From Methylorubrum extorquens (GTDB lineage: Bacteria > Pseudomonadota > Alphaproteobacteria > Rhizobiales > Beijerinckiaceae): a stretch of 32,000 nt of DNA. Position numbers and translations under genes: made by a program. The first letter of the stretch is position 1. The number at the start of each line of letters is the position of its first letter. The notes beneath the pieces are model-generated. The model saw nothing but the letters and a program-made list of their open reading frames with translations. It ran no database searches and was not told the origin of the DNA. Shown piece by piece: positions 2,835 through 21,132 of this stretch. The stretch is taken from NCBI GenBank assembly GCA_900234795.1, contig LT962688.1:3270001-3302000 (forward strand), written 5' to 3'.

Positions 2835-4238
2835 CTATCCGGCTGCGACCGAAGCGTTCTTCCGGCCATAAAGCGCGTAGAACACCAATCCGAGGACGTT
2901 CCAGACGGCGAACCAGAGTTGGGTCTTCGCGGGCAGGCTGAAGAACAGATAGCCGCAGCCCAAAATCGTGATCGCCCCGATGAGCCACGGGGCCGGGGCG
3001 CGGAAGGTGCGGGGAGCATCCGGCGCACGGGCGCGCATCACCAGCATGCAGGCCGCGACGGCAATGAACGCCGCGAGCGTCCCGGCATTGGCGAGTGCAG
3101 CGAGCTCCCCCAGCGGGACGAGCCCGGCGAGCACGGTCACCACGGCCGCCGTGAAGAGGGTGATCCGAACCGGCGTTCCGGCGGAGGAGAGTTTCGCCAG
3201 GCTCTGCGGCAGCATCCCGTCGCGGGCCATGGTGAAGAAGATCCGGCTCTGGCCGTAGAAAAAGGCGAGGATGACGGTGGGCAACGCGATCACCGCCGAG
3301 GCCGCGAGATACTGCGCCACCAGCGGCCGGCCGAGTTCGCGCAGGATCAGCGCCAGCGGCTCCGGACTGTCGGCAAAGCGCGTGTAGGACAGGGCCCCCA
3401 CCGCGGTGACCGCGACCGCAACGTAGATCACGACGCAGGCCGCCATCGATCCGACGATGCCGATGATCAGGTCGCGCCCTGGGTTGCGCGTCTCCTCCGC
3501 CGCGGTGGCGATGGCGTCGAAGCCGTAGAAGGCGAAGAAGATGATCGCCGCCGCCGCCATGATGCCGCGCTCGACCCCGTCGGCGCCCAGGCTCTTCACG
3601 AAGCCGAACGGGTTGAACGGTTCAAGATGGGCGGCGTCGAAGGCGGGCACCGCGAAGACCACGAAGACGATCAACGCGGCGATCTTCACCAGCACCAGCG
3701 CGGCATTGACTGTGGCGCTCTCCCGCGTGCCGCGCAGGAGCAGCACGGCGACGACGACGATGATCGCGACCGCGGGGAGGTTGACGATCCCGCCCGCATC
3801 CGGCCCCCGCATCAGCGCCCTGGGGAACCCGAACAGGTTCTCCAGCAGCGGCGCGGCATAGCCGGACCAGCCGACCGCCACCGCGCTGACGACGAGCGAG
3901 TATTCGAGTATCAGGCTCCAGCCGATGACCCAGGCGAGGATCTCGCCGAGCACGACATAGGTGTAGGTATAGGCGCTGCCCGAGACCGGGATCATCGTCG
4001 CCATTTCGGCATAGGCGAGCGCTGCGCAGGCGCAGATCGCGCCGGCAATGGCGAAGGACAGGATCACGGCGGGCCCGGCCTTGGCCGCCCCGACGCCGAT
4101 GAGCGTGAGGATGCCGGTTCCGACGATCGCGCCGACACCGAGGGCCATGAGATGCGGCCAGCCGAGCGTTCGTGCCAGCCGACGCTCTTCACCGGGCTCC
4201 AGTTGCAAGGGCTTACGGCGAAGAAGGCTGGACGTCAT
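2835..4238 (-). CDS. APC-family amino acid permease
   Basis: Polytopic membrane ORF with GVGAIVGTGILTLIG..FAIAGAICACAALAYAEMATMIPVSGSAYTY. I chose the start at ATG 4238 (MTSSLLRRK) because AGGAG lies 5 nt upstream. The track's longer start at 4292 has no such site. Confidence 0.85.
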   Translation of the reverse strand: MTSSLLRRKPLQLEPGEERRLARTLGWPHLMALGVGAIVGTGILTLIGVGAAKAGPAVILSFAIAGAICACAALAYAEMATMIPVSGSAYTYTYVVLGEILAWVIGWSLILEYSLVVSAVAVGWSGYAAPLLENLFGFPRALMRGPDAGGIVNLPAVAIIVVVAVLLLRGTRESATVNAALVLVKIAALIVFVVFAVPAFDAAHLEPFNPFGFVKSLGADGVERGIMAAAAIIFFAFYGFDAIATAAEETRNPGRDLIIGIVGSMAACVVIYVAVAVTAVGALSYTRFADSPEPLALILRELGRPLVAQYLAASAVIALPTVILAFFYGQSRIFFTMARDGMLPQSLAKLSSAGTPVRITLFTAAVVTVLAGLVPLGELAALANAGTLAAFIAVAACMLVMRARAPDAPRTFRAPAPWLIGAITILGCGYLFFSLPAKTQLWFAVWNVLGLVFYALYGRKNASVAAG

Positions 4239-4376
4239 TCGGGCTCCTGTCACGCGGTTGTCCGAGAGCATAGGGCAGCGTGACCGTCGCACCCTCGCGC
4301 AAGCGTCGCCGAATGCGCCAGCCCTCGGCCCGGCTTCTTCGTTTCAAACGCGCCGACAGTTCTACAATTTTTGCGG

Positions 4377-4416
4377 GCATCGCCCCGAAAGGTGGTTGCC
4401 GGCTTTCGGGCGATGC
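4377..4416 (-). repeat. palindromic intergenic repeat, copy A (inverted orientation relative to copies B-E)
   Basis: GCATCGCCCCGAAAGGTGGTTGCCGGCTTTCGGGCGATGC. The arms GCATCGCCCCGAAAG and CTTTCGGGCGATGC can pair. It shares the core CCGG..ACCNCCTTTCGGG-NN-GATGC (reverse complement) with the other copies. Confidence 0.8.
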
Positions 4417-4467
4417 CGGCGCGACGGCTCAGAGCCTCGTTCCGGATCCGAACTCCGGGATGATGCC

Positions 4468-5616
4468 TTAGGGCGCGAGGCTCACCCGGTCCGCCGCCAG
4501 CGCCTCGGCGCGCTTGCGCTCGTCGGGGTTGAGACCGGCGGTCGCTTGATCGAGGCCGGCATCGGCGCGGCCCTGCGAGGCTGCGGTGAGGTTCCAGGCC
4601 GCCGCCTCGACCAGATTCTTGGGCACGCCGCGGCCGGCGACGTAGAGCTTGGCGATCCGGTTCTGGGCGATGGCGTTGCCGCGCTGGGCCGCATGCAGGA
4701 AGTAGCGGGCCGCGCGGGTCTCGTCCTTGGGAACGCCGTCGCCGTTGAACAGCCGGATCGCGAACTCGACCTCGGCACCGAGATCGCCGTTGTCGGCGGC
4801 GCGGCGAAACCATTGCGCCGCCTGGGTCGTGTCCTTGGAGACGCCCTTGCCCTGGAGGTAGAGCACGCCCAGCGCGTATTGCGCGGCGGGGATCTCGGCC
4901 TCGGCCGCCGCCCGGAAATTGGCCAGGGCCGCTGCTAGATCCGCCGGCTTGTCGCTCGCGAGCTGGATCAGGGCGAGATTGTAGCAGGCGCTGGGCTGTC
5001 CCTTGCGGGCCGCCTGTTCGAGCCAGGTCCGGCCAGCCTTCTCGTCCTTGGGTTGCCCGCGCCCATCCATCGCCATCAGGCCGAGGGAGGCCATGGCGTT
5101 GGGATCGTTCTGCACGGCCGCCAGCCGGTACCATTCATGGGCGCGTTTAGGGTCCGGCTTGACCCCGAGGCCCTGGTTGTAGAGTTCGCCGAGCAGCGTC
5201 ATCGCCGCGGCGTCCTTCGGATTCGCCTCGATCCGCTTGGTCGCCTCGCGGAAGGCGGTGACGTAGCGACCGCGCTGATACGCCCCATAAGCCGCGTCCG
5301 CATTCGGGTTCGCCGTCGTGGGCTGCGCCCCCTGGACGTTGGCCGAGTAGGGCGAGGGCAGCTCACGCTTGAGGTCGAACAGGTTCGGCTTGGCCGGCGT
5401 CTGCCCGACAGGCTCCTTCGGGGCGGGCTGCTTCGGGGCTGCGTGCGGAGCGCCGATGTCGAGCGCGAGGACGGCGCAGGCGCTCAGGACCGCGAGGGAC
5501 AGGGTTCCCGTTTGGCGTGCGGCCTTCCCCCTGCGCCCACGCGCCCTTCCCTCCCCCCACAGAGGGAAGAGGGCTTTGAAGGTCACCGCCACGGTCCCGT
5601 CTTCAAAAAAAATCAT
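4468..5616 (-). CDS. Sel1/TPR-like repeat protein, probably exported
   Basis: Repeated A..WY..AA.QG...A...LG..Y..G.GV.KD motifs (Sel1 repeats). A hydrophobic signal-like segment LSLAVLSACAVLALD is present. I chose the start at ATG 5616, which overlaps the upstream stop as ATGA. The exact start is uncertain. Confidence 0.75.
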   Translation of the reverse strand: MIFFEDGTVAVTFKALFPLWGEGRARGRRGKAARQTGTLSLAVLSACAVLALDIGAPHAAPKQPAPKEPVGQTPAKPNLFDLKRELPSPYSANVQGAQPTTANPNADAAYGAYQRGRYVTAFREATKRIEANPKDAAAMTLLGELYNQGLGVKPDPKRAHEWYRLAAVQNDPNAMASLGLMAMDGRGQPKDEKAGRTWLEQAARKGQPSACYNLALIQLASDKPADLAAALANFRAAAEAEIPAAQYALGVLYLQGKGVSKDTTQAAQWFRRAADNGDLGAEVEFAIRLFNGDGVPKDETRAARYFLHAAQRGNAIAQNRIAKLYVAGRGVPKNLVEAAAWNLTAASQGRADAGLDQATAGLNPDERKRAEALAADRVSLAP

Positions 5617-11650: not shown

Positions 11651-11848
11651 ATTTCTGAGGCATGACGCGATCGCCCCCTGGCGCCGGGACGCGAGCGCGT
11701 CTATCTCTGGCGGGCGGGGCTGCAGAGTTCGTCAGGAGAACTTTCCCCGGGGCCTTATCGACTCCCCAAGGAGCTGTCACTGGCCTCGTCCGTGGACTTG
11801 GCCAACACGGCGCCCACCTACACTGTAGGTTTCCCGGGATCGACACTC
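11651..11848 (+). ncRNA. ssrS: probable 6S RNA (boundaries approximate, +/- 20 nt)
   Basis: A 247-nt non-coding gap between zapA and the 5-formyl-THF cyclo-ligase gene is the conserved proteobacterial ssrS location. The segment starts AUUUCUGAGG... like E. coli 6S and contains several stems, for example AGAGUUC-GUCAGGA-GAACUUU, GGGG..CCCC, and CCGGGA (11684-9) pairing with UCCCGG (11832-7). I could not fold it rigorously. Confidence 0.5.
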
Positions 11849-11859
11849 CAACGGCTCAA

Positions 11860-12450
11860 GTGGCTCCGCACTCTTCTCCCGAACGCTCCCTGAAGGCGAG
11901 CCTCCGCGCCGAGGCACTCAGCCGCCGCGACGCGCTCTCGCCCGAGGCCCGCAAGGCCGGCTCGCTGCGCGCCGCCGAGACCATCGCGGCCATTCCCGAG
12001 CTGGCCGAGGCGCCGCTGGTCGGCGCCTTCTGGCCGATCCGCTCCGAGATCGACCCGCGCCCGCTGATCGAGCGCCTGTTCGCCCGCGGCCAGCGGGTCG
12101 CGCTGCCGAAGGTCACCAAGCAAGGCCTCGTCTTCCGCGAATGGCGCGCGGGCGAGGAACTGGTGAGCGGCGGCTTCGGCCTCAGCGAGCCCCGCGACGA
12201 CCTTCCGCCGCTCGACCCCACCGCCCTGATCGTGCCGCTCGCCGCCTTCGACCGCGCGGGCCAGCGCATCGGCTACGGCGCGGGCTATTACGATCAGGCG
12301 ATCGAGCGGCTCTCGAAGAACGGGCCGGTGCTGACCGTCGGCATCGCCTTCTCCGTGCAGGAGATCGCGCGCGTCCCGGCCGAGCCGCATGACCGCCCGC
12401 TCGACCATCTCGTGACCGAGACCGGCCCCGTGCCGCTCCGGCAAAGCTAG
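11860..12450 (+). CDS. 5-formyltetrahydrofolate cyclo-ligase
   Basis: SLKASLRAEALSRRDAL..VGAFWPIRSEIDP..VALPKV..GLSEP..IVPLAAFDRAGQRIGYGAGYYD are family motifs. I chose GTG 11860 as the start, giving 196 aa, so that the ORF does not run across the putative 6S RNA. Confidence 0.85.
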   Translation: MAPHSSPERSLKASLRAEALSRRDALSPEARKAGSLRAAETIAAIPELAEAPLVGAFWPIRSEIDPRPLIERLFARGQRVALPKVTKQGLVFREWRAGEELVSGGFGLSEPRDDLPPLDPTALIVPLAAFDRAGQRIGYGAGYYDQAIERLSKNGPVLTVGIAFSVQEIARVPAEPHDRPLDHLVTETGPVPLRQS

Positions 12451-13489: not shown

Positions 13490-14495
13490 ATGGACCCGAT
13501 GGCGGCCCGTTCCGCGTCCCTCGACACGCCTCCCCTCGCCAAGCCCGGCATGACGCTGGTGCGGATGCTGGTGTTCCTGGCGCTCGCGGGCTTCCTCGCC
13601 TTCGTCCTCTACAAGCAGATCACCCCGGCCTTCCTCGCCAATCCAGGCCTGAACGGGCTGATCCTCGGCGTGCTGCTGATCGCGGTGCTGCTCGCCTTCG
13701 GGCAGGTAACGCGGCTGTTTCGCGAGGTGCGCTACGTCAACGCGGTCGCCGCGGGGCAGACCCCGAAGGACCGGCCGGCCCTGCTCGCCCCGCTGCTGCC
13801 CGCCATCGCAGCCCGGCGCGATGGGATGACGCTGTCGAGCACCCGCGCGCATCTCGACACCACCGCCGTGCGGCTCGACGAGGGCCGCGAGATCCTGCGC
13901 TACATCGCCGGCATCCTGATCCTGCTCGGCCTGCTCGGCACGTTCTGGGGCCTGATCGAGACGCTCTCGGCGGTGGGCTCGGTGATCGGCGGCATGCGCG
14001 GCGGCGGCGATGCGGCGGTGATGTTCGATGAACTCAAGAGCGGGCTCGCGGTGCCGCTCTCGGGCATCGGCCTCGCCTTCTCCGCCTCGCTGTTCGGCCT
14101 CGCCTCCTCTTTGATCGTCGGCTTCCTCGACCTTCAGACGGGTCAGGCCCATTCGCGTTTCCACAACGAGCTGGAGGATTGGCTCGTCTCCGGCGAGGAG
14201 CAGGCGCTCGCCACGACCACCGTCGCGGCGCGCCCGGCGCCGGAGCACGACCCCGCCATCGCCCGCGAGTTGCAGGCCGCGGTAGACCGCCTGAGCGGCG
14301 TCATCGCCGAGGGCGCCGGGGGGCCGGGGCGCAACCCAGGCCATGACCAACCTCGCCGAGGGCATCCAAGGGCTCGTGCAGCACATGCGCGCCGAGCAGC
14401 AGATGATCCGCGACTGGGTCGAGGCCCAGGCCGCCCGGGAGCGGGAGCTGAAGCAGGTGCTCGAACGGCTCGCGCGCGAGAAGGTCGGCTCCTAA
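13490..14495 (+). pseudogene. MotA/TolQ/ExbB-family proton-channel protein, reading frame interrupted (needs removal of 1 nt, most simply one G of the G6 run at 14318-14323); genuine frameshift or sequence error
   Basis: The N-terminal 275 aa, in the frame of 13490, include LLGLLGTFWGLIETL (the MotA/ExbB signature). The C-terminal part ATQAMTNLAEGIQGLVQHMRAEQQMIRDWVEAQAARERELKQVLERLAREKVGS* is in the next frame and ends at TAA 14493-14495. The span is 1006 nt, which is 335 codons plus 1 nt. Confidence 0.7.
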
Positions 14496-15511
14496 ATGGC
14501 CTCTGCCCGTGCCCGCTCGCAGCGCAGCCTGAACGTCTGGCCGGGCTATGTCGACGCGCTTGCGACACTCCTGCTGGCCGTCGTCTTCCTGCTCACCGTC
14601 TTCGTGGTGGGGCAGTTCTTCCTCTCTCGCAGGAGTTGACCGGGCGCGACGCGGTCCTGACCCGCCTCAACCGCCAGATCGCCGACCTCACCGACCTGCT
14701 GGCGCTGGAGCGCTCCAGCCGCCGCGCCCAGGAAGAGGCGGCCTCCGGCCTGCGCAACACCCTGACGGCCACGGAAGCCGAGCGCGACCGGCTCCGGGCG
14801 CTCACCGATGCCAGCGAGGCGGCCCAGGGCAAGAGCGCCGACGTCGATGCCCAGCTCGCGGCCGAGCGCGGCGCGACGCAGCGGGCCCAGAATCAGGTCG
14901 AGCTTCTGAACGAGCAGATCCGCGCCCTGCGCCGACAACTCGCGGCGCTCGAAGACGCGCTGGCGGCCTCCGAATCCCGCGACCGGGAAAGCCAAGCCCG
15001 CATCGCCGAACTCGGCAGCCGCCTCAACGTGGCGCTCGCCCAGCGGGTGCAGGAACTCGCCCGCTACCGCTCCGACTTCTTCGGGCGGCTGCGTCAGGTC
15101 ATCGGCAGCCGCACCGATGTCCGCATCGTCGGCGACCGTTTCGTGCTGCAATCCGAGGTTCTGTTCGCCGCCGGCTCCGCCGCGCTGAAGCCCGAGGCCG
15201 GGCCGGAACTGGACCGGATCGCCGGGGCGATCCTCGATATCGCGCGGGAGATCCCCGCCGACATCCCCTGGGTGCTGCGGGTGGACGGTCACACCGATGC
15301 GCGCCCGATCCAGTCGGCGCAATTCCCGTCGAACTGGGCGCTGTCGGCGTCGCGTGCCATCGCGGTAGTGCAGTATCTGCGGAGCAAGGGCCTGCCGCCG
15401 CAGCGGCTCCTGGCCGGCGCCTTCGGCGAGTTCCAGCCGCTCGATTCGGGGACGAGCGAGGAGGCCTATTCCCGAAATCGCCGGATCGAGATGAAGCTGA
15501 CGGAGCGGTGA
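14496..15511 (+). pseudogene. OmpA/MotB-family peptidoglycan-binding protein with long coiled coil, reading frame interrupted in the CT repeat at 14621-14628; genuine frameshift or sequence error
   Basis: ATG 14496 follows the upstream stop as TAAATG. It encodes MASARARSQRSLNVWPGYVDALATLLLAVVFLLTVFVVGQFFLS (a MotB-type TM helix with Asp) and then stops at 14637-14639. The continuation QELTGRDAVLTRLNRQIADL...(coiled coil)...GHTD..SNWALSASRA..NRRIE (OmpA domain) is in another frame. The span is 1016 nt, which is 338 codons plus 2 nt. Confidence 0.7.
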
Positions 15512-15563
15512 GCCGCGCGCCACGGCGGCTTGCGGAAATCACCATACGGCCTAATCTTCGGCC

Positions 15564-15803
15564 ATGACGGTCGAGGCACTCTACATCCTGCGCCGACAGG
15601 CACCGCGATCCGCTTTCAAGGATCTCGACCGTATCGTGCTGACGGCCGACGTGACGACTGATGACGGCGACACGGTCGCCGCCGGCACCGAGGGAACGAT
15701 CGTCGGCGTGTGGCGCGACGGCGCGGCCTACGAGGTGGAATTCACGACACCTGTCGCCGGGCTGGCAACGGTACTGCCGAGCGCCCTGGCCCCGAAGCCT
15801 TGA
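15564..15803 (+). CDS. DUF4926 domain protein
   Basis: 79-aa ORF. The pattern LDRIVLTADV..GDTVAAGTEGTIVGVWRDGAAYEVEF matches my recollection of DUF4926. Confidence 0.75.
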   Translation: MTVEALYILRRQAPRSAFKDLDRIVLTADVTTDDGDTVAAGTEGTIVGVWRDGAAYEVEFTTPVAGLATVLPSALAPKP

Positions 15804-16150
15804 GCAGGTCGACACGATCGCCGACAGCCTTTGCCATCAGTTCAGAGAAGATCAGCGGCTATCTCTTGAACCCAGCGCATCCCGACGGTGGATCGAAGGC
15901 GCGCTTTTTGTCGATGTTCGGCTTCTCCGGCGATGCGCCCGAGATTCTGGCGCAAGCACTCCTCGCCCACGCCAAGCCGGAGCACTTGGCGAAAGAGGGA
16001 CTGACGCCCCTCGGGGACGTCAAGCTCATCTACGAGGGCTCGCTTCAGGCGCCCAATGGCCGCTCGCCCTTCGTGCGGACGGTTTGGCGCCTTCTGCCCG
16101 ACGACACGGCTCATTTCGTGACGGCAGTGCCCTTGAAGGAGCGTCGCTAG
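15800..16150 (+). CDS. DUF6883 domain protein (start codon uncertain; TTG 15800 proposed)
   Basis: KISGYLLNPAHPDGGSKARFLSMFGF...GRSPFVRTVWRL...FVTAVP matches the DUF6883 pattern (KL..Y.LN..HP.GG.KA.FF...GF ... TVW ... TA.P). No ATG exists between the upstream stop and the domain. TTG at 15800 overlaps the DUF4926 stop as TTGA. The track's GTG 15710 start would overlap DUF4926 by 94 nt. Confidence 0.65.
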   Translation: MSRSTRSPTAFAISSEKISGYLLNPAHPDGGSKARFLSMFGFSGDAPEILAQALLAHAKPEHLAKEGLTPLGDVKLIYEGSLQAPNGRSPFVRTVWRLLPDDTAHFVTAVPLKERR

Positions 16151-16165
16151 GCGCCTGTTTTTGCG

Positions 16166-16207
16166 GCGTCTTTACCGAAAGCCGGTGATTACCCTTCGGG
16201 GCGATGC
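16166..16207 (+). repeat. palindromic intergenic repeat, copy E (more diverged)
   Basis: GCGTCTTTACCGAAAGCCGGTGATTACCCTTCGGGGCGATGC, sitting between two convergent stop codons (16150 and 16209). Confidence 0.65.
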
Positions 16208-16208
16208 C

Positions 16209-17216
16209 CTAAAACTCGCTCCGATAGGCGAACAGCCCCGGCACGCCGCCGGTCATCACGAACAGCACCGCCGCGCCGCGCTCGTACAGGCCGGCGCGCA
16301 CGTCGTGGAGCAGCCCGGCGAACGCCTTGCCGCTGTAGACGGGGTCGAGCAGCAGTCCTTCCGTGCGGGCCATCAGCCGCACCGCCTCGCGCATGCCCTC
16401 GGTCGGGATGCCGTAGCCCGGCCCGCGATGGGAGCCGTCCACGAGGATGGCGTCGTCGGAGAGCGTCTGACTGGCATCGATCAGCGCGAGGGTGTCGCGG
16501 GCCCTGGCCAGCGTTGCGGCCGTCGCCTCGGGCTCGGGGGCGAGCACCGTGTAGGATTGGGCCAGATGCGGGTCGCGGCCGGCGGCGGCGAGACCGGCGG
16601 CGAGCCCCGCATGGGTGCCGGAGCTGCCGTTCGGCACGACGATGCGGGCGAAGGCGAGGCCGAGATTGGCCGCCTGCTCCAGGATCTCGGCGGCGCACGC
16701 CGCGTAGCCGAGACAGCCGAGCGGGCTCGACCCGCCGGAGGGGAAGACGTGGACGCGCCGCCCCTCCGCCCTCAACTCCTCCGCCCGCGCCTCGGCCTGC
16801 GCCAGCGAAGCCGCCTCGCCCGGCAGCAGGTGCACATGGGCGCCGAACAGATCCTGCAACAGCCGGTTGCCGTTGGCTGTGTAGTCGGCGTCCTCCCGCG
16901 GGACGCTGCGGGTGAGGAACAGTTCGCAGGCGAGCCCCATCCGCGCGGCGGAGGCGGCGGTGAGCCGGGCGTGGTTCGATTGCAGCGCACCGACGGTGAT
17001 CACCGTGTCGGCCCGCTCCGCCAGCGCCTGACCGAGCAGGAATTCGAGCTTGCGCAGCTTGTTGCCGCCCAAACCCACCGGGCCGATGTCGTCGCGCTTC
17101 ACGAACAGGCGGACGCCGTTCAGCTCGGGCCCGAGATGGGTCGAGAGACGGTCGAGGGAGCGGATCGGCGTCGGCCCGTCGGTGAGCGCGACACGGGGGA
17201 AGCGGGTGAGAACCAT
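16209..17216 (-). CDS. D-cysteine desulfhydrase / ACC deaminase family PLP enzyme
   Basis: 335-aa ORF with RDDIGPVGLGGNKLRKLEFLL (PLP-lysine motif), GALQSNHAR and DPVYSGKAF. Confidence 0.88.
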   Translation of the reverse strand: MVLTRFPRVALTDGPTPIRSLDRLSTHLGPELNGVRLFVKRDDIGPVGLGGNKLRKLEFLLGQALAERADTVITVGALQSNHARLTAASAARMGLACELFLTRSVPREDADYTANGNRLLQDLFGAHVHLLPGEAASLAQAEARAEELRAEGRRVHVFPSGGSSPLGCLGYAACAAEILEQAANLGLAFARIVVPNGSSGTHAGLAAGLAAAGRDPHLAQSYTVLAPEPEATAATLARARDTLALIDASQTLSDDAILVDGSHRGPGYGIPTEGMREAVRLMARTEGLLLDPVYSGKAFAGLLHDVRAGLYERGAAVLFVMTGGVPGLFAYRSEF

Positions 17217-20819: not shown

Positions 20820-20851
20820 AAAAAAAGAAGCCGCCCCAGGAGGAGCGGCTT
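20820..20851 (-). terminator. strong intrinsic terminator on the minus strand
   Basis: The minus strand reads AAGCCGCUCC-UCCU-GGGGCGGCUU, a 10-bp stem with one G.U pair, followed by C and UUUUUUU. On the plus strand the same stem has a C.A mismatch and no U tract, so the orientation is minus. Confidence 0.75.
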
Positions 20852-20928
20852 TCGTGAGTCTTACAGGGAGGCATCAAGCAGACTGGAAAGAGATCCCAAT
20901 CAGGATCCAGACAATCTGGATGTGCCTC
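20820..20928 (-). ncRNA. candidate small RNA (about 100 nt, 5' end uncertain) ending at the intrinsic terminator
   Basis: A locally AT-rich island in a roughly 70% GC genome. There is no credible ORF: the only one, 20788..21033, reads through the terminator. Contains hairpin AUCCAGA-UUG-UCUGGAU (20905-20921), possible pairing of GAGGCA with UGCCUC, a GCCUCCCUG stretch and a CUCCUCCU terminator loop. Confidence 0.4.
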
Positions 20929-20944
20929 TTCGTAGAACGGAAAG

Positions 20945-20960
20945 GTTAACGCTCCGTTAA
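20945..20960 (-). promoter_or_regulatory. perfect CtrA-box consensus TTAA-N7-TTAAC
   Basis: The minus strand reads TTAACGGAGCGTTAAC. TTAA is very rare in this window. The box sits just upstream of the sRNA candidate. One reading makes the first half-site a -35 element, with TTCTAC 17 nt downstream. Confidence 0.45.
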
Positions 20961-21132
20961 GGGCCGGGCCGGCGCGGCGGGAATCGTCGGCACAGGCCCG
21001 TGAAGACCCAAGCCGGGACGCGCGCGATCGCAACAGAGCGGTCCGATAGCCACCGCCACCCGCCGCATCGGTCGCGGAATCGCTCGAAGCGGCGCACCGG
21101 CGACCGGGGCTGTCATGAGTTGGGCGCCGTCA

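Follow-up and report, generated by a model that had tools for sequence, protein, structure and literature searches.

Introduction

The CdiA-CT toxins of Klebsiella pneumoniae 342 (Kp342) and Escherichia coli 3006 (EC3006), which belong to contact-dependent growth inhibition (CDI) systems, are colicin-D-like BECR tRNases cleaving uncharged tRNA-Ile(GAU) in the acceptor stem (PMC9086364). According to the same review, their active site comprises a Lys-Tyr-Thr triad plus His and Arg (K157, Y160, H170, R252 and T255 in Kp342), the Kp342 toxin activity is stimulated by EF-Tu/EF-Ts, and the immunity proteins of the two systems are a beta-sandwich dimer and an alpha-solenoid. Here we describe a two-gene cassette of Methylorubrum extorquens that consists of a DUF4926 gene (ORF1) followed by a DUF6883 gene (ORF2), the product of which is predicted to share the fold of these toxins. 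The cassette is located in a 32,000-nt stretch of DNA (contig LT962688.1 of assembly GCA_900234795.1, positions 3,270,001 to 3,302,000 of the forward strand), which was analysed as a whole and is called the window below. ORF1 and ORF2 probably form a chromosomal two-gene toxin-antitoxin (TA) or toxin-immunity module, a reading to which we give a probability of roughly 70%.

The two families have been brought together before. A bioRxiv preprint of August 2026 (10.64898/2026.08.28.747851) assigned DUF6883 to a new profile, 'BECR-Tox3', of the colicin-like branch, presumed the conserved downstream DUF4926 to be the immunity gene and noted Phage_Mu_F fusions; the pairing was predicted computationally, without experimental test. 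The same two Pfam families are found here and they lead to the same inference, a colicin-like ribonuclease (RNase) toxin of the BECR type with DUF4926 immunity and phage-linked fusions, and the ORF1-ORF2 pair is a further member of this predicted TA-like family. DUF4926 is downstream in the preprint, whereas it is upstream here and in 10 of 53 linked loci, and here the genes overlap by 4 nt; a strain-level presence/absence case is not reported there. What is added beyond the preprint is the inhibitor-upstream order, both here and in proteobacterial loci, the resemblance of the predicted structure to the tRNases of Kp342 and EC3006, with a set of candidate catalytic residues, an Rhs fusion, a portal-toxin-inhibitor fusion, co-divergence of the two families and a clean case of strain presence/absence.

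ORF2 is like CdiA-CT of Kp342 (6CP9) and EC3006 (6CP8) in its predicted fold, helices and then a four-stranded sheet, and the conserved Lys, Tyr, Thr, His and Arg of DUF6883 resemble the triad plus His and Arg of these toxins, each of which is neutralised by a small cognate protein encoded adjacently. No relationship between them and ORF2 is detectable by sequence, however. Each CDI toxin is the C-terminal domain of a large CdiA protein that is secreted, whereas ORF2 is stand-alone and predicted to be cytoplasmic, and the CDI immunity folds differ from the SH3-like barrel predicted for DUF4926. With type II TA systems that have BECR-fold toxins (RelBE, HigBA, BrnTA and ParDE relatives) the cassette shares two small co-directional overlapping genes, a basic RNase-fold toxin with an acidic partner, a patchy accessory distribution on chromosomes and plasmids, and the occurrence of either gene order. 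Since ORF2 is closer to the colicin-D branch than to RelE, it is probably no ribosome-dependent mRNase. In polymorphic toxin systems (Rhs, CDI and type VI secretion system (T6SS) types) the toxin is the tip of a large protein and the immunity gene comes after it, whereas ORF2 stands alone with its putative inhibitor upstream. The phage PBECR domains fused to MuF or portal proteins are of the same domain class, placed at the C-terminus of phage head proteins, and share the active-site pattern of an N-terminal His and a C-terminal Thr (PMC5512222); in contrast, ORF2 is a stand-alone gene of a bacterial chromosome with no phage genes nearby.

Results and Discussion

Organization of the cassette

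The cassette contains the following elements.

15564 to 15803, + strand: ORF1, DUF4926 gene (Pfam PF16277), ATG start, 79 aa, putative antitoxin or immunity gene
15800 to 16150, + strand: ORF2, DUF6883 gene (Pfam PF21814), TTG start, 116 aa, putative tRNase toxin gene
15800 to 15803, + strand: TTGA junction, in which the TTG start of ORF2 lies over the TGA stop of ORF1

An earlier note, made by a model from the letters of the window, had assigned the two genes to DUF4926 and DUF6883 and described a 4-nt TTGA overlap with a TTG start inside the ORF1 stop codon. Both families are matched above the Pfam gathering score: ORF1 gives E 1.4e-8 and 34.5 bits (cut-off 29.1), with the match limited to residues 21-62 (profile positions 2-39 of 57), and the ORF2 frame gives E 1.6e-20 and 73.8 bits (cut-off 27) over profile positions 9-110 of 110. 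A homologue search with ORF1 recovered proteins annotated as DUF4926. With ORF2 as query 1272 representatives of the DUF6883 family were found, and the majority of the 150 listed are stand-alone proteins of about 105-125 aa. No second copy of ORF1 or ORF2 was found within the window, and tblastn against GenBank phages gave no match. Rfam and tRNA scans of the cassette were empty and thus gave no indication of an RNA antitoxin (type I or type III).

The overlap was seen as described, and the identical junction is present in Methylorubrum populi (78% amino-acid identity) and in CP073633. TTG at 15800 is the sole canonical ORF2 start at which the conserved N-terminal motif is retained and the overlap with ORF1 stays short. 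The ORF2 orthologues of M. populi and relatives are 116 aa long, with an N-terminus identical in extent to that of the TTG-started ORF2, and codons 2-14 differ between the window and M. populi by 6 synonymous and 4 non-synonymous changes. Because the orthologues have 116 aa, the TTGA junction is shared and the family members are mostly stand-alone and of 105-125 aa, ORF2 is full length and not the 5'-truncated remnant that the note had considered; the nearly complete Pfam match agrees with this. The stop/start overlap suggests translational coupling of the antitoxin and toxin genes. Two other starts were rejected, namely GTG at 15710 (146 aa), which would overlap ORF1 by 94 nt while the homologues and the Pfam profile begin near the TTG, and ATG at 15914 (78 aa), which loses the conserved K17, Y21, H27 and K33. 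In public records the toxin gene is called as 104 aa or 78 aa, and the 78-aa call begins at Met40 and cuts off that same part of the predicted active site. No exact match to the 116-aa ORF2 sequence was found in public records, where the gene calls use other starts.

Predicted fold and candidate active site of ORF2

ORF2 is a basic protein with an isoelectric point (pI) of 9.52. Its AlphaFold2 model, built from an 83-sequence alignment (pLDDT 93.1, pTM 0.85), shows a short strand, three helices and then a four-stranded antiparallel sheet (beta-alpha3-beta4), with helices at residues 15-22, 31-38 and 47-57 and strands at 63-68, 74-81, 91-98 and 103-111. Foldseek against the PDB with this model gave four significant matches (E 9e-6 to 2e-5), all of them chains of 6CP9, the CdiA-CT/CdiI structure of K. 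pneumoniae 342. The template modelling (TM) scores were 0.64-0.74 (best 0.70-0.74) at a Foldseek probability of 1.0 and a sequence identity of 14-17%. The matched chains appear to be the toxin rather than the immunity protein, because their length and helix-then-sheet topology fit the description of the toxin in the review. The next matches were 6CP8 and 6VEK (CdiA-CT of E. coli 3006), with E values of 1e-3 and 3e-3. As modelled, the fold of DUF6883 is that of a BECR ribonuclease of the colicin-D-like branch.

The conserved core of DUF6883 is the motif K..YLL..HP.G..KA.F, and the K..GYLLN..HP.GG.KA.F motif to which the earlier note had drawn attention in the second protein is conserved in the family. 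Seven residues are conserved at 84-99%, and all of them are present in ORF2: K17 (82/83), Y21 (81/83), H27 (81/83), K33 (82/83), H57 (77/83), R93 (70/83) and T108 (80/83). The candidate catalytic residues of ORF2 are K17, Y21, H27, K33, H57, R88, R93 and T108, and the nearly invariant ones among them (K17, Y21, H27, H57, R93 and T108) have a spacing that resembles that of K157, Y160, H170, R252 and T255 in Kp342. DUF6883 also fits the PBECR class of Iyer 2017 (PMC5512222), with an N-terminal helical His and a C-terminal Thr/Ser.

Relatives of ORF2 occur as parts of larger proteins. In a Proteobacteria metagenome-assembled genome (MAG), JAFECT010000009.1, DUF6883 is the C-terminal domain of an RHS-repeat protein (L052:28-3351), which is a classical polymorphic toxin. 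A 72-aa ORF downstream of it (3373-3591) looked SH3-like by eye and was tried as a divergent DUF4926, which was not supported (hhalign probability 2%). In the viral sequence IMGVR_UViG_3300031239_000142, a 690-aa phage ORF (L082:1594-3666) contains Phage_portal, DUF6883 and DUF4926 in series; judged by its domain matches, this portal protein carries the putative toxin and its presumed inhibitor fused in cis. A second, similar portal-like ORF of the same sequence (3741-5003) has a different C-terminal domain. In a Foldseek search of BFVD, the ORF2 model matched the C-termini of phage proteins annotated as minor capsid (TM 0.74).

Predicted structure of ORF1

ORF1 is acidic (pI 4.47). The AlphaFold2 model (pLDDT 89.8) consists of an N-terminal helix and a five-stranded SH3-like barrel, and its Foldseek matches were SH3 and Tudor domains only, at E about 1e-2 and TM 0.55-0.77. 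The motif GT.V...YEVEF is the conserved core of DUF4926, and E59 is the only residue that is invariant across 53 DUF4926 partners. An acidic, SH3-like first protein with the motif GTIVGV...YEVEF had been read from the letters, and the pI, the model and the conservation of the motif in the family all agree with that description.

Linkage of DUF4926 and DUF6883 across genomes

DUF6883 loci were collected by a pattern scan with one genome per species (57 loci), and partners were found with our own hidden Markov model. At 53 of the 57 loci a DUF4926 gene is directly adjacent to DUF6883 on the same strand, and Pfam DUF4926 is matched by each of the 52 partner ORFs that were scanned, from the window and 51 loci (L034 was omitted as a duplicate of L033). 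The four loci without an adjacent DUF4926 are two at a contig end (L015 and L049), the Rhs fusion (L052) and one with a partial match only (L056). A second DUF4926 match in L012 was rejected as a lone partial fragment. DUF4926 is upstream in 10 of the 53 pairs, from Alpha- and Betaproteobacteria, Chthoniobacter and one Planctomycetota MAG, and downstream in the other 43, from Planctomycetota, Nitrospirota, Bacteroidota, Armatimonadota, Spirochaetes and a Mycobacterium. Overlaps of 4 nt recur among the 57 loci in both gene orders. Pairwise divergences of toxin and partner are correlated (Mantel r 0.76), a value reached in 0 of 2000 permutations. The two families are paired far beyond chance. 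The earlier note had described them as frequently adjacent in cyanobacterial and proteobacterial genomes; the adjacency is confirmed and includes Alpha- and Betaproteobacteria, but no cyanobacteria were found with the pattern used.

Three DUF4926 paralogues of Methylobacterium or Methylorubrum, 50-54% identical, lie each directly upstream of DUF6883 at three other loci. One paralogous pair is on a 47-kb plasmid, and another copy of the same pair adjoins BrnT/BrnA; another paralogous pair adjoins DUF4258/DUF2283. Homologues of the cassette are found on 7 of 72,556 plasmid records. In other phyla the pairs are surrounded by housekeeping genes of unrelated kinds (secA in five Planctomycetes, an S1 protein, H+-PPase, AcrB and a TonB receptor), and the pair is thus autonomous.

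Two observations on the genomic settings may be added. In MAGs of five planctomycete species (L024, L037, L041, L044 and L048) the DUF6883-DUF4926 pair follows secA in the same orientation, in four of them directly, which suggests long-term vertical retention at one locus in this Planctomycetota lineage. At L075 (JBQCMR010000004.1), listed alongside L074 (CP039546.1), a paralogous DUF4926-DUF6883 pair is flanked by the genes of an SbmA/BacA-type ABC transporter and of a fructosamine kinase, a few genes from DUF4258/DUF2283.

Presence and absence of the cassette among strains

Upstream of the cassette is a pair of MotA/ExbB-like and OmpA/MotB-like genes on the + strand, ending at 15511, and downstream is a convergent gene for a pyridoxal phosphate-dependent (PALP) protein, D-cysteine desulfhydrase/CuyA-like, at 16209-17216 on the − strand. 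ABC transporter genes are also among the flanking genes. The MotB-like and convergent dcyD-like neighbours named in the earlier note are thus borne out. Alignment of related genomes defines one segment.

15512 to 16208, no strand assigned: presence/absence segment of about 700 bp; occupied in the window, L059, L066 and L058, empty in L067 (M. extorquens DM4), L068 and L071

Over 7.3 kb the window shares 99.89% identity with CP021054.1, a chromosome from the extorquens/zatmanii group of Methylorubrum. The same site is occupied by the cassette in CP021054.1, CP073633.1 and M. populi AP014809.1. No cassette is present there in M. extorquens DM4 (FP103042.2) and in seven other assemblies (a M. aminovorans genome, two further contigs with the same PALP protein and four more assemblies), in which the flanking stop codons are 28-147 nt apart. 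The PALP proteins of DM4 and CP073633 are identical, and only CP073633 has the cassette. No target-site duplication or mobility gene was found at the borders of the indel. The cassette had been placed between convergent core genes in the note, and the comparison of sister strains bears this out with an indel at a conserved site, for which both occupied and empty strains were found.

In cassette-free strains, as at the empty site of DM4 (L067:4509-4547), the convergent stop codons are separated by a GC-rich hairpin (CCCCTCCCCCTGCGGGAGAGGGG), which looks like a bidirectional terminator. Where the cassette is present, the whole hairpin spacer is replaced. In at least one assembly, GCA_051964895.1 (L069), the cassette is absent from the motB/dcyD site, yet a paralogous pair is present elsewhere (the above L075).

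Both genes are under purifying selection, with dN/dS values against M. populi of 0.13 for ORF1 and 0.09 for ORF2. The dS values of the cassette genes (0.75 and 1.37) are 2-4 times those of the flanking genes (0.33-0.41), which reflects either faster evolution or allelic replacement. In the M. extorquens strain of CP073633.1 (L066:4568-5133) the DUF4926 start codon is ACG instead of ATG, and nine residues of the toxin are changed (among them P47H, S89L and D102G); the dN/dS values relative to the window are 0.26 (antitoxin) and 0.33 (toxin). The module may be decaying in this strain. The lower GC content at third codon positions that had been estimated by eye is real but modest when computed (0.79 and 0.78 for the two genes, 0.84-0.92 in the neighbours). 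The overall GC content of the two genes (0.67 and 0.63) also lies below the mean of the window, which is 0.70 (sd 0.024).

Proposed mechanism

From the predicted structures we infer that DUF6883 is a BECR-fold RNase toxin and DUF4926 the SH3-like inhibitor that neutralises it directly. The inhibitor would be translated first and the toxin then by coupling at the TTGA junction, so that toxin synthesis would always follow that of the inhibitor, at a constant ratio between the two. The acidic SH3-like protein would bind the basic RNase stoichiometrically and block either the active site or the RNA-binding face, possibly through the invariant Glu59. The toxin itself is expected to be a metal-independent endoribonuclease which cleaves RNA by transesterification, using a Lys-Tyr-Thr triad (K17, Y21 and T108) together with a His (H27 or H57) and an Arg (R88 or R93). 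By analogy with CdiA-CT of Klebsiella 342 and E. coli 3006, the free toxin would most likely cleave tRNA, possibly another RNA, and so arrest translation. As there is no secretion, trafficking or phage-structural partner here, the module would act inside the producing cell, and it behaves like a selfish accessory element that is gained and lost at the motB-like/dcyD-like intergenic site.

A more far-reaching combination of these elements can be drawn, which we regard as unlikely in its entirety. DUF6883 and DUF4926 would make up a widespread toxin-antitoxin family, with DUF6883 as an intracellular acceptor-stem tRNase like CdiA-CT of Kp342, possibly EF-Tu/EF-Ts-dependent, and DUF4926 as an inhibitor of a new kind, in which a minimal SH3-like barrel uses its single invariant Glu to plug the active site. 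The toxin would also be carried by phages, at least once as a cis fusion with its inhibitor on a portal protein, and the chromosomal pairs would provide abortive infection as well as immunity to injected phage toxins.

Points against the module and alternative explanations

Several points count against a toxin-antitoxin module of this kind. Sequence and profile searches of the PDB with both proteins found no relative, the lone S-layer match (E = 2) being noise, and the equivalence of catalytic residues between ORF2 and CdiA-CT of Kp342 comes from motif spacing and conservation, not from superposition. Position 105, which by spacing corresponds to R252 of Kp342, is Arg in 49 of 83 family members (59%); it is His in ORF2 and variable in close orthologues, so the activity of ORF2 could be altered. 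Among the structural matches of ORF1 there was no SH3-like immunity protein or antitoxin. Neither Pfam nor the fold search found in ORF1 a DNA-binding domain of the ribbon-helix-helix, helix-turn-helix, AbrB or Phd type as in type II systems. Classical antitoxins of that type are labile and autoregulating, unlike DUF4926, which looks compact and globular. DNA may be bound by the SH3-like barrel itself; no convincing operator palindrome was found in 15512-15563. Because no DNA-binding domain was found, 'toxin-immunity-like' fits the pair as well as 'type II TA'. The general collections NCBIfam, PADLOC and PHROGs gave no useful match for either protein: NCBIfam matched neither, the PADLOC-DB v2 defence models gave no match to ORF2 and a chance-level one to ORF1 (E 0.011), and PHROG gave none at E < 0.06. 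The literature holds no experimental work on toxicity, binding or RNase activity for any DUF6883 or DUF4926 member, and the other papers found to mention DUF4926 do so in passing only. The earlier note's term 'uncharacterised' was right in this respect, but not entirely so for the pairing, since that had been predicted in the 2026 preprint. Its proposal of a TA-like module holds in each part that could be examined in silico (co-occurrence, a full-length ORF2 and presence/absence).

Rather than plain addiction or selfish maintenance, the same two proteins might serve abortive infection or anti-phage defence, translation being arrested once the inhibitor is disturbed by a phage. TA pairs with BECR RNase toxins are common among defence effectors, this module is an accessory one that varies between strains, and the paralogous pairs next to BrnT/BrnA and DUF4258/DUF2283 adjoin other TA modules. 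An arms race is suggested by the phages that carry the same toxin domain, one of them in a toxin-inhibitor fusion. We nevertheless consider a defence role rather unlikely, as no PADLOC model was matched, no sensor component is evident, and the neighbours here and in other phyla are housekeeping genes and not defence islands; the sequence holds nothing that separates defence from plain TA behaviour. It is quite improbable that the pair is an orphan of a polymorphic toxin system (Rhs, CDI or T6SS type), in which the immunity gene is kept against the DUF6883 toxins of neighbours and the toxin is a detached recombination cassette or is exported by an adaptor. Such an origin would agree with the relative L052 being the C-terminal domain of an RHS-repeat protein, with CDI toxins being the nearest solved structures, and with a globular DUF4926 lacking a DNA-binding domain, which is more like an immunity protein than a classical antitoxin. 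However, ORF2 has no N-terminal trafficking domain, there is no Rhs, CdiA or VgrG gene nearby, most listed DUF6883 representatives stand alone at 105-125 aa, and the ORF downstream of the Rhs-linked relative has no detectable DUF4926. Purifying selection and translational coupling of both genes would be unexpected for a silent orphan.

Purifying selection also bears on the idea that the pair is non-toxic or attenuated, with DUF6883 as a benign RNA-processing or RNA-binding protein and DUF4926 as its regulatory partner, or that it is a decaying module. The His at position 105, where Arg prevails in the family, would fit this, as would the CP073633 copy with its ACG antitoxin start, nine toxin changes and raised dN/dS, and inactive PBECR domains do exist, e.g. 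in Mu gp30 (Iyer 2017, PMC5512222). We find it very doubtful, given that K17, Y21, H27, K33, H57, R93 and T108 are all intact in ORF2, that dN/dS against M. populi is about 0.1 for both genes, and that strict linkage to a small acidic partner, whichever gene comes first, is what marks a toxin which needs neutralisation. A reversal of the roles, with DUF4926 as toxin and DUF6883 as antitoxin, is scarcely credible. SH3-like barrels are known from toxins too, namely those of the MazF, Kid and CcdB families, but it is DUF6883 that has the predicted RNase fold, the catalytic-type residues, the basic charge and the toxin position in the Rhs and portal fusions, and DUF4926 is acidic with just one invariant polar residue.

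The reading of a toxin-antitoxin module, if true, would add a colicin-D-like tRNase to the stand-alone toxin-antitoxin repertoire and an SH3-like barrel to the known antitoxin and immunity folds, and one toxin domain would link chromosomal TA pairs, Rhs toxins and phage head-borne RNases. The DUF6883 family is large, its 1272 representatives being clusters at 50% identity from many phyla. The present instance is an ordinary accessory TA-like module and the family-level prediction already exists in preprint form. The locus is nonetheless a good experimental handle on the family, a natural experiment in which near-isogenic strains of Methylorubrum, a genetically tractable model methylotroph, are found with and without the cassette.

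Candidate regulatory elements and other features of the window

Three candidate elements flank or overlap the two genes.

15529 to 15556, + strand: possible own promoter of the cassette (TTGCGG, 16 nt, TAATCT), ending 7 nt before the ORF1 ATG, read from the sequence
16141 to 16164, + strand: weak hairpin resembling a terminator, with a T-run, which overlaps the stop codon of the toxin gene; from a consensus scan
16166 to 16209, no strand assigned: imperfect intergenic palindrome, resembling a repetitive extragenic palindromic (REP) element, between the stop codons of the toxin gene and of the convergent PALP gene

M. populi retains both promoter hexamers (as TTGCGT...TACTCT), whereas its spacer has otherwise diverged. 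A consensus scan of the locus called no sigma-70 promoter, 15529-15556 included. There is no Shine-Dalgarno sequence before the ORF1 ATG, and the position of the candidate promoter suggests that the ORF1 mRNA would be leaderless or near-leaderless. The terminator scan found 1 site against 0.7 expected, so the hairpin at 16141-16164 is not significant alone. A copy of a palindromic repeat had been reported after the cassette; it is present at 16166-16209 (GGCATCGCCCGAAAGCCGG...CCTTTCGGGGCGATGCC), imperfect, with a degenerate left arm. The palindrome occurs at least twice in the window, the other copy being at 4375-4409 on the − strand and 86% identical over 35 nt. It is found in CP021054 and CP073633, and is absent from M. 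populi, in which both stop codons overlap.

The upstream gene pair differs from its relatives in the window. Compared with CP021054.1, the region 13490-15511 carries one additional G (14318) and one additional CT (14622-14623). Together these shift the frame in the last part of the motA/exbB-like gene and the first part of the ompA/motB-like gene. The two genes, which encode 331 and 337 aa in all relatives, are thereby merged into a 673-aa ORF with about 100 out-of-frame residues in the middle. These indels could be real pseudogenising changes or sequencing errors. Elsewhere in the window, Rfam identified a 6S RNA at 11714-11870 (+ strand, 71.7 bits), upstream of the 5-formyltetrahydrofolate cyclo-ligase gene by synteny with L058, and the alphaproteobacterial sRNA BjrC1505 at 20821-20967 (− strand, 68.7 bits).

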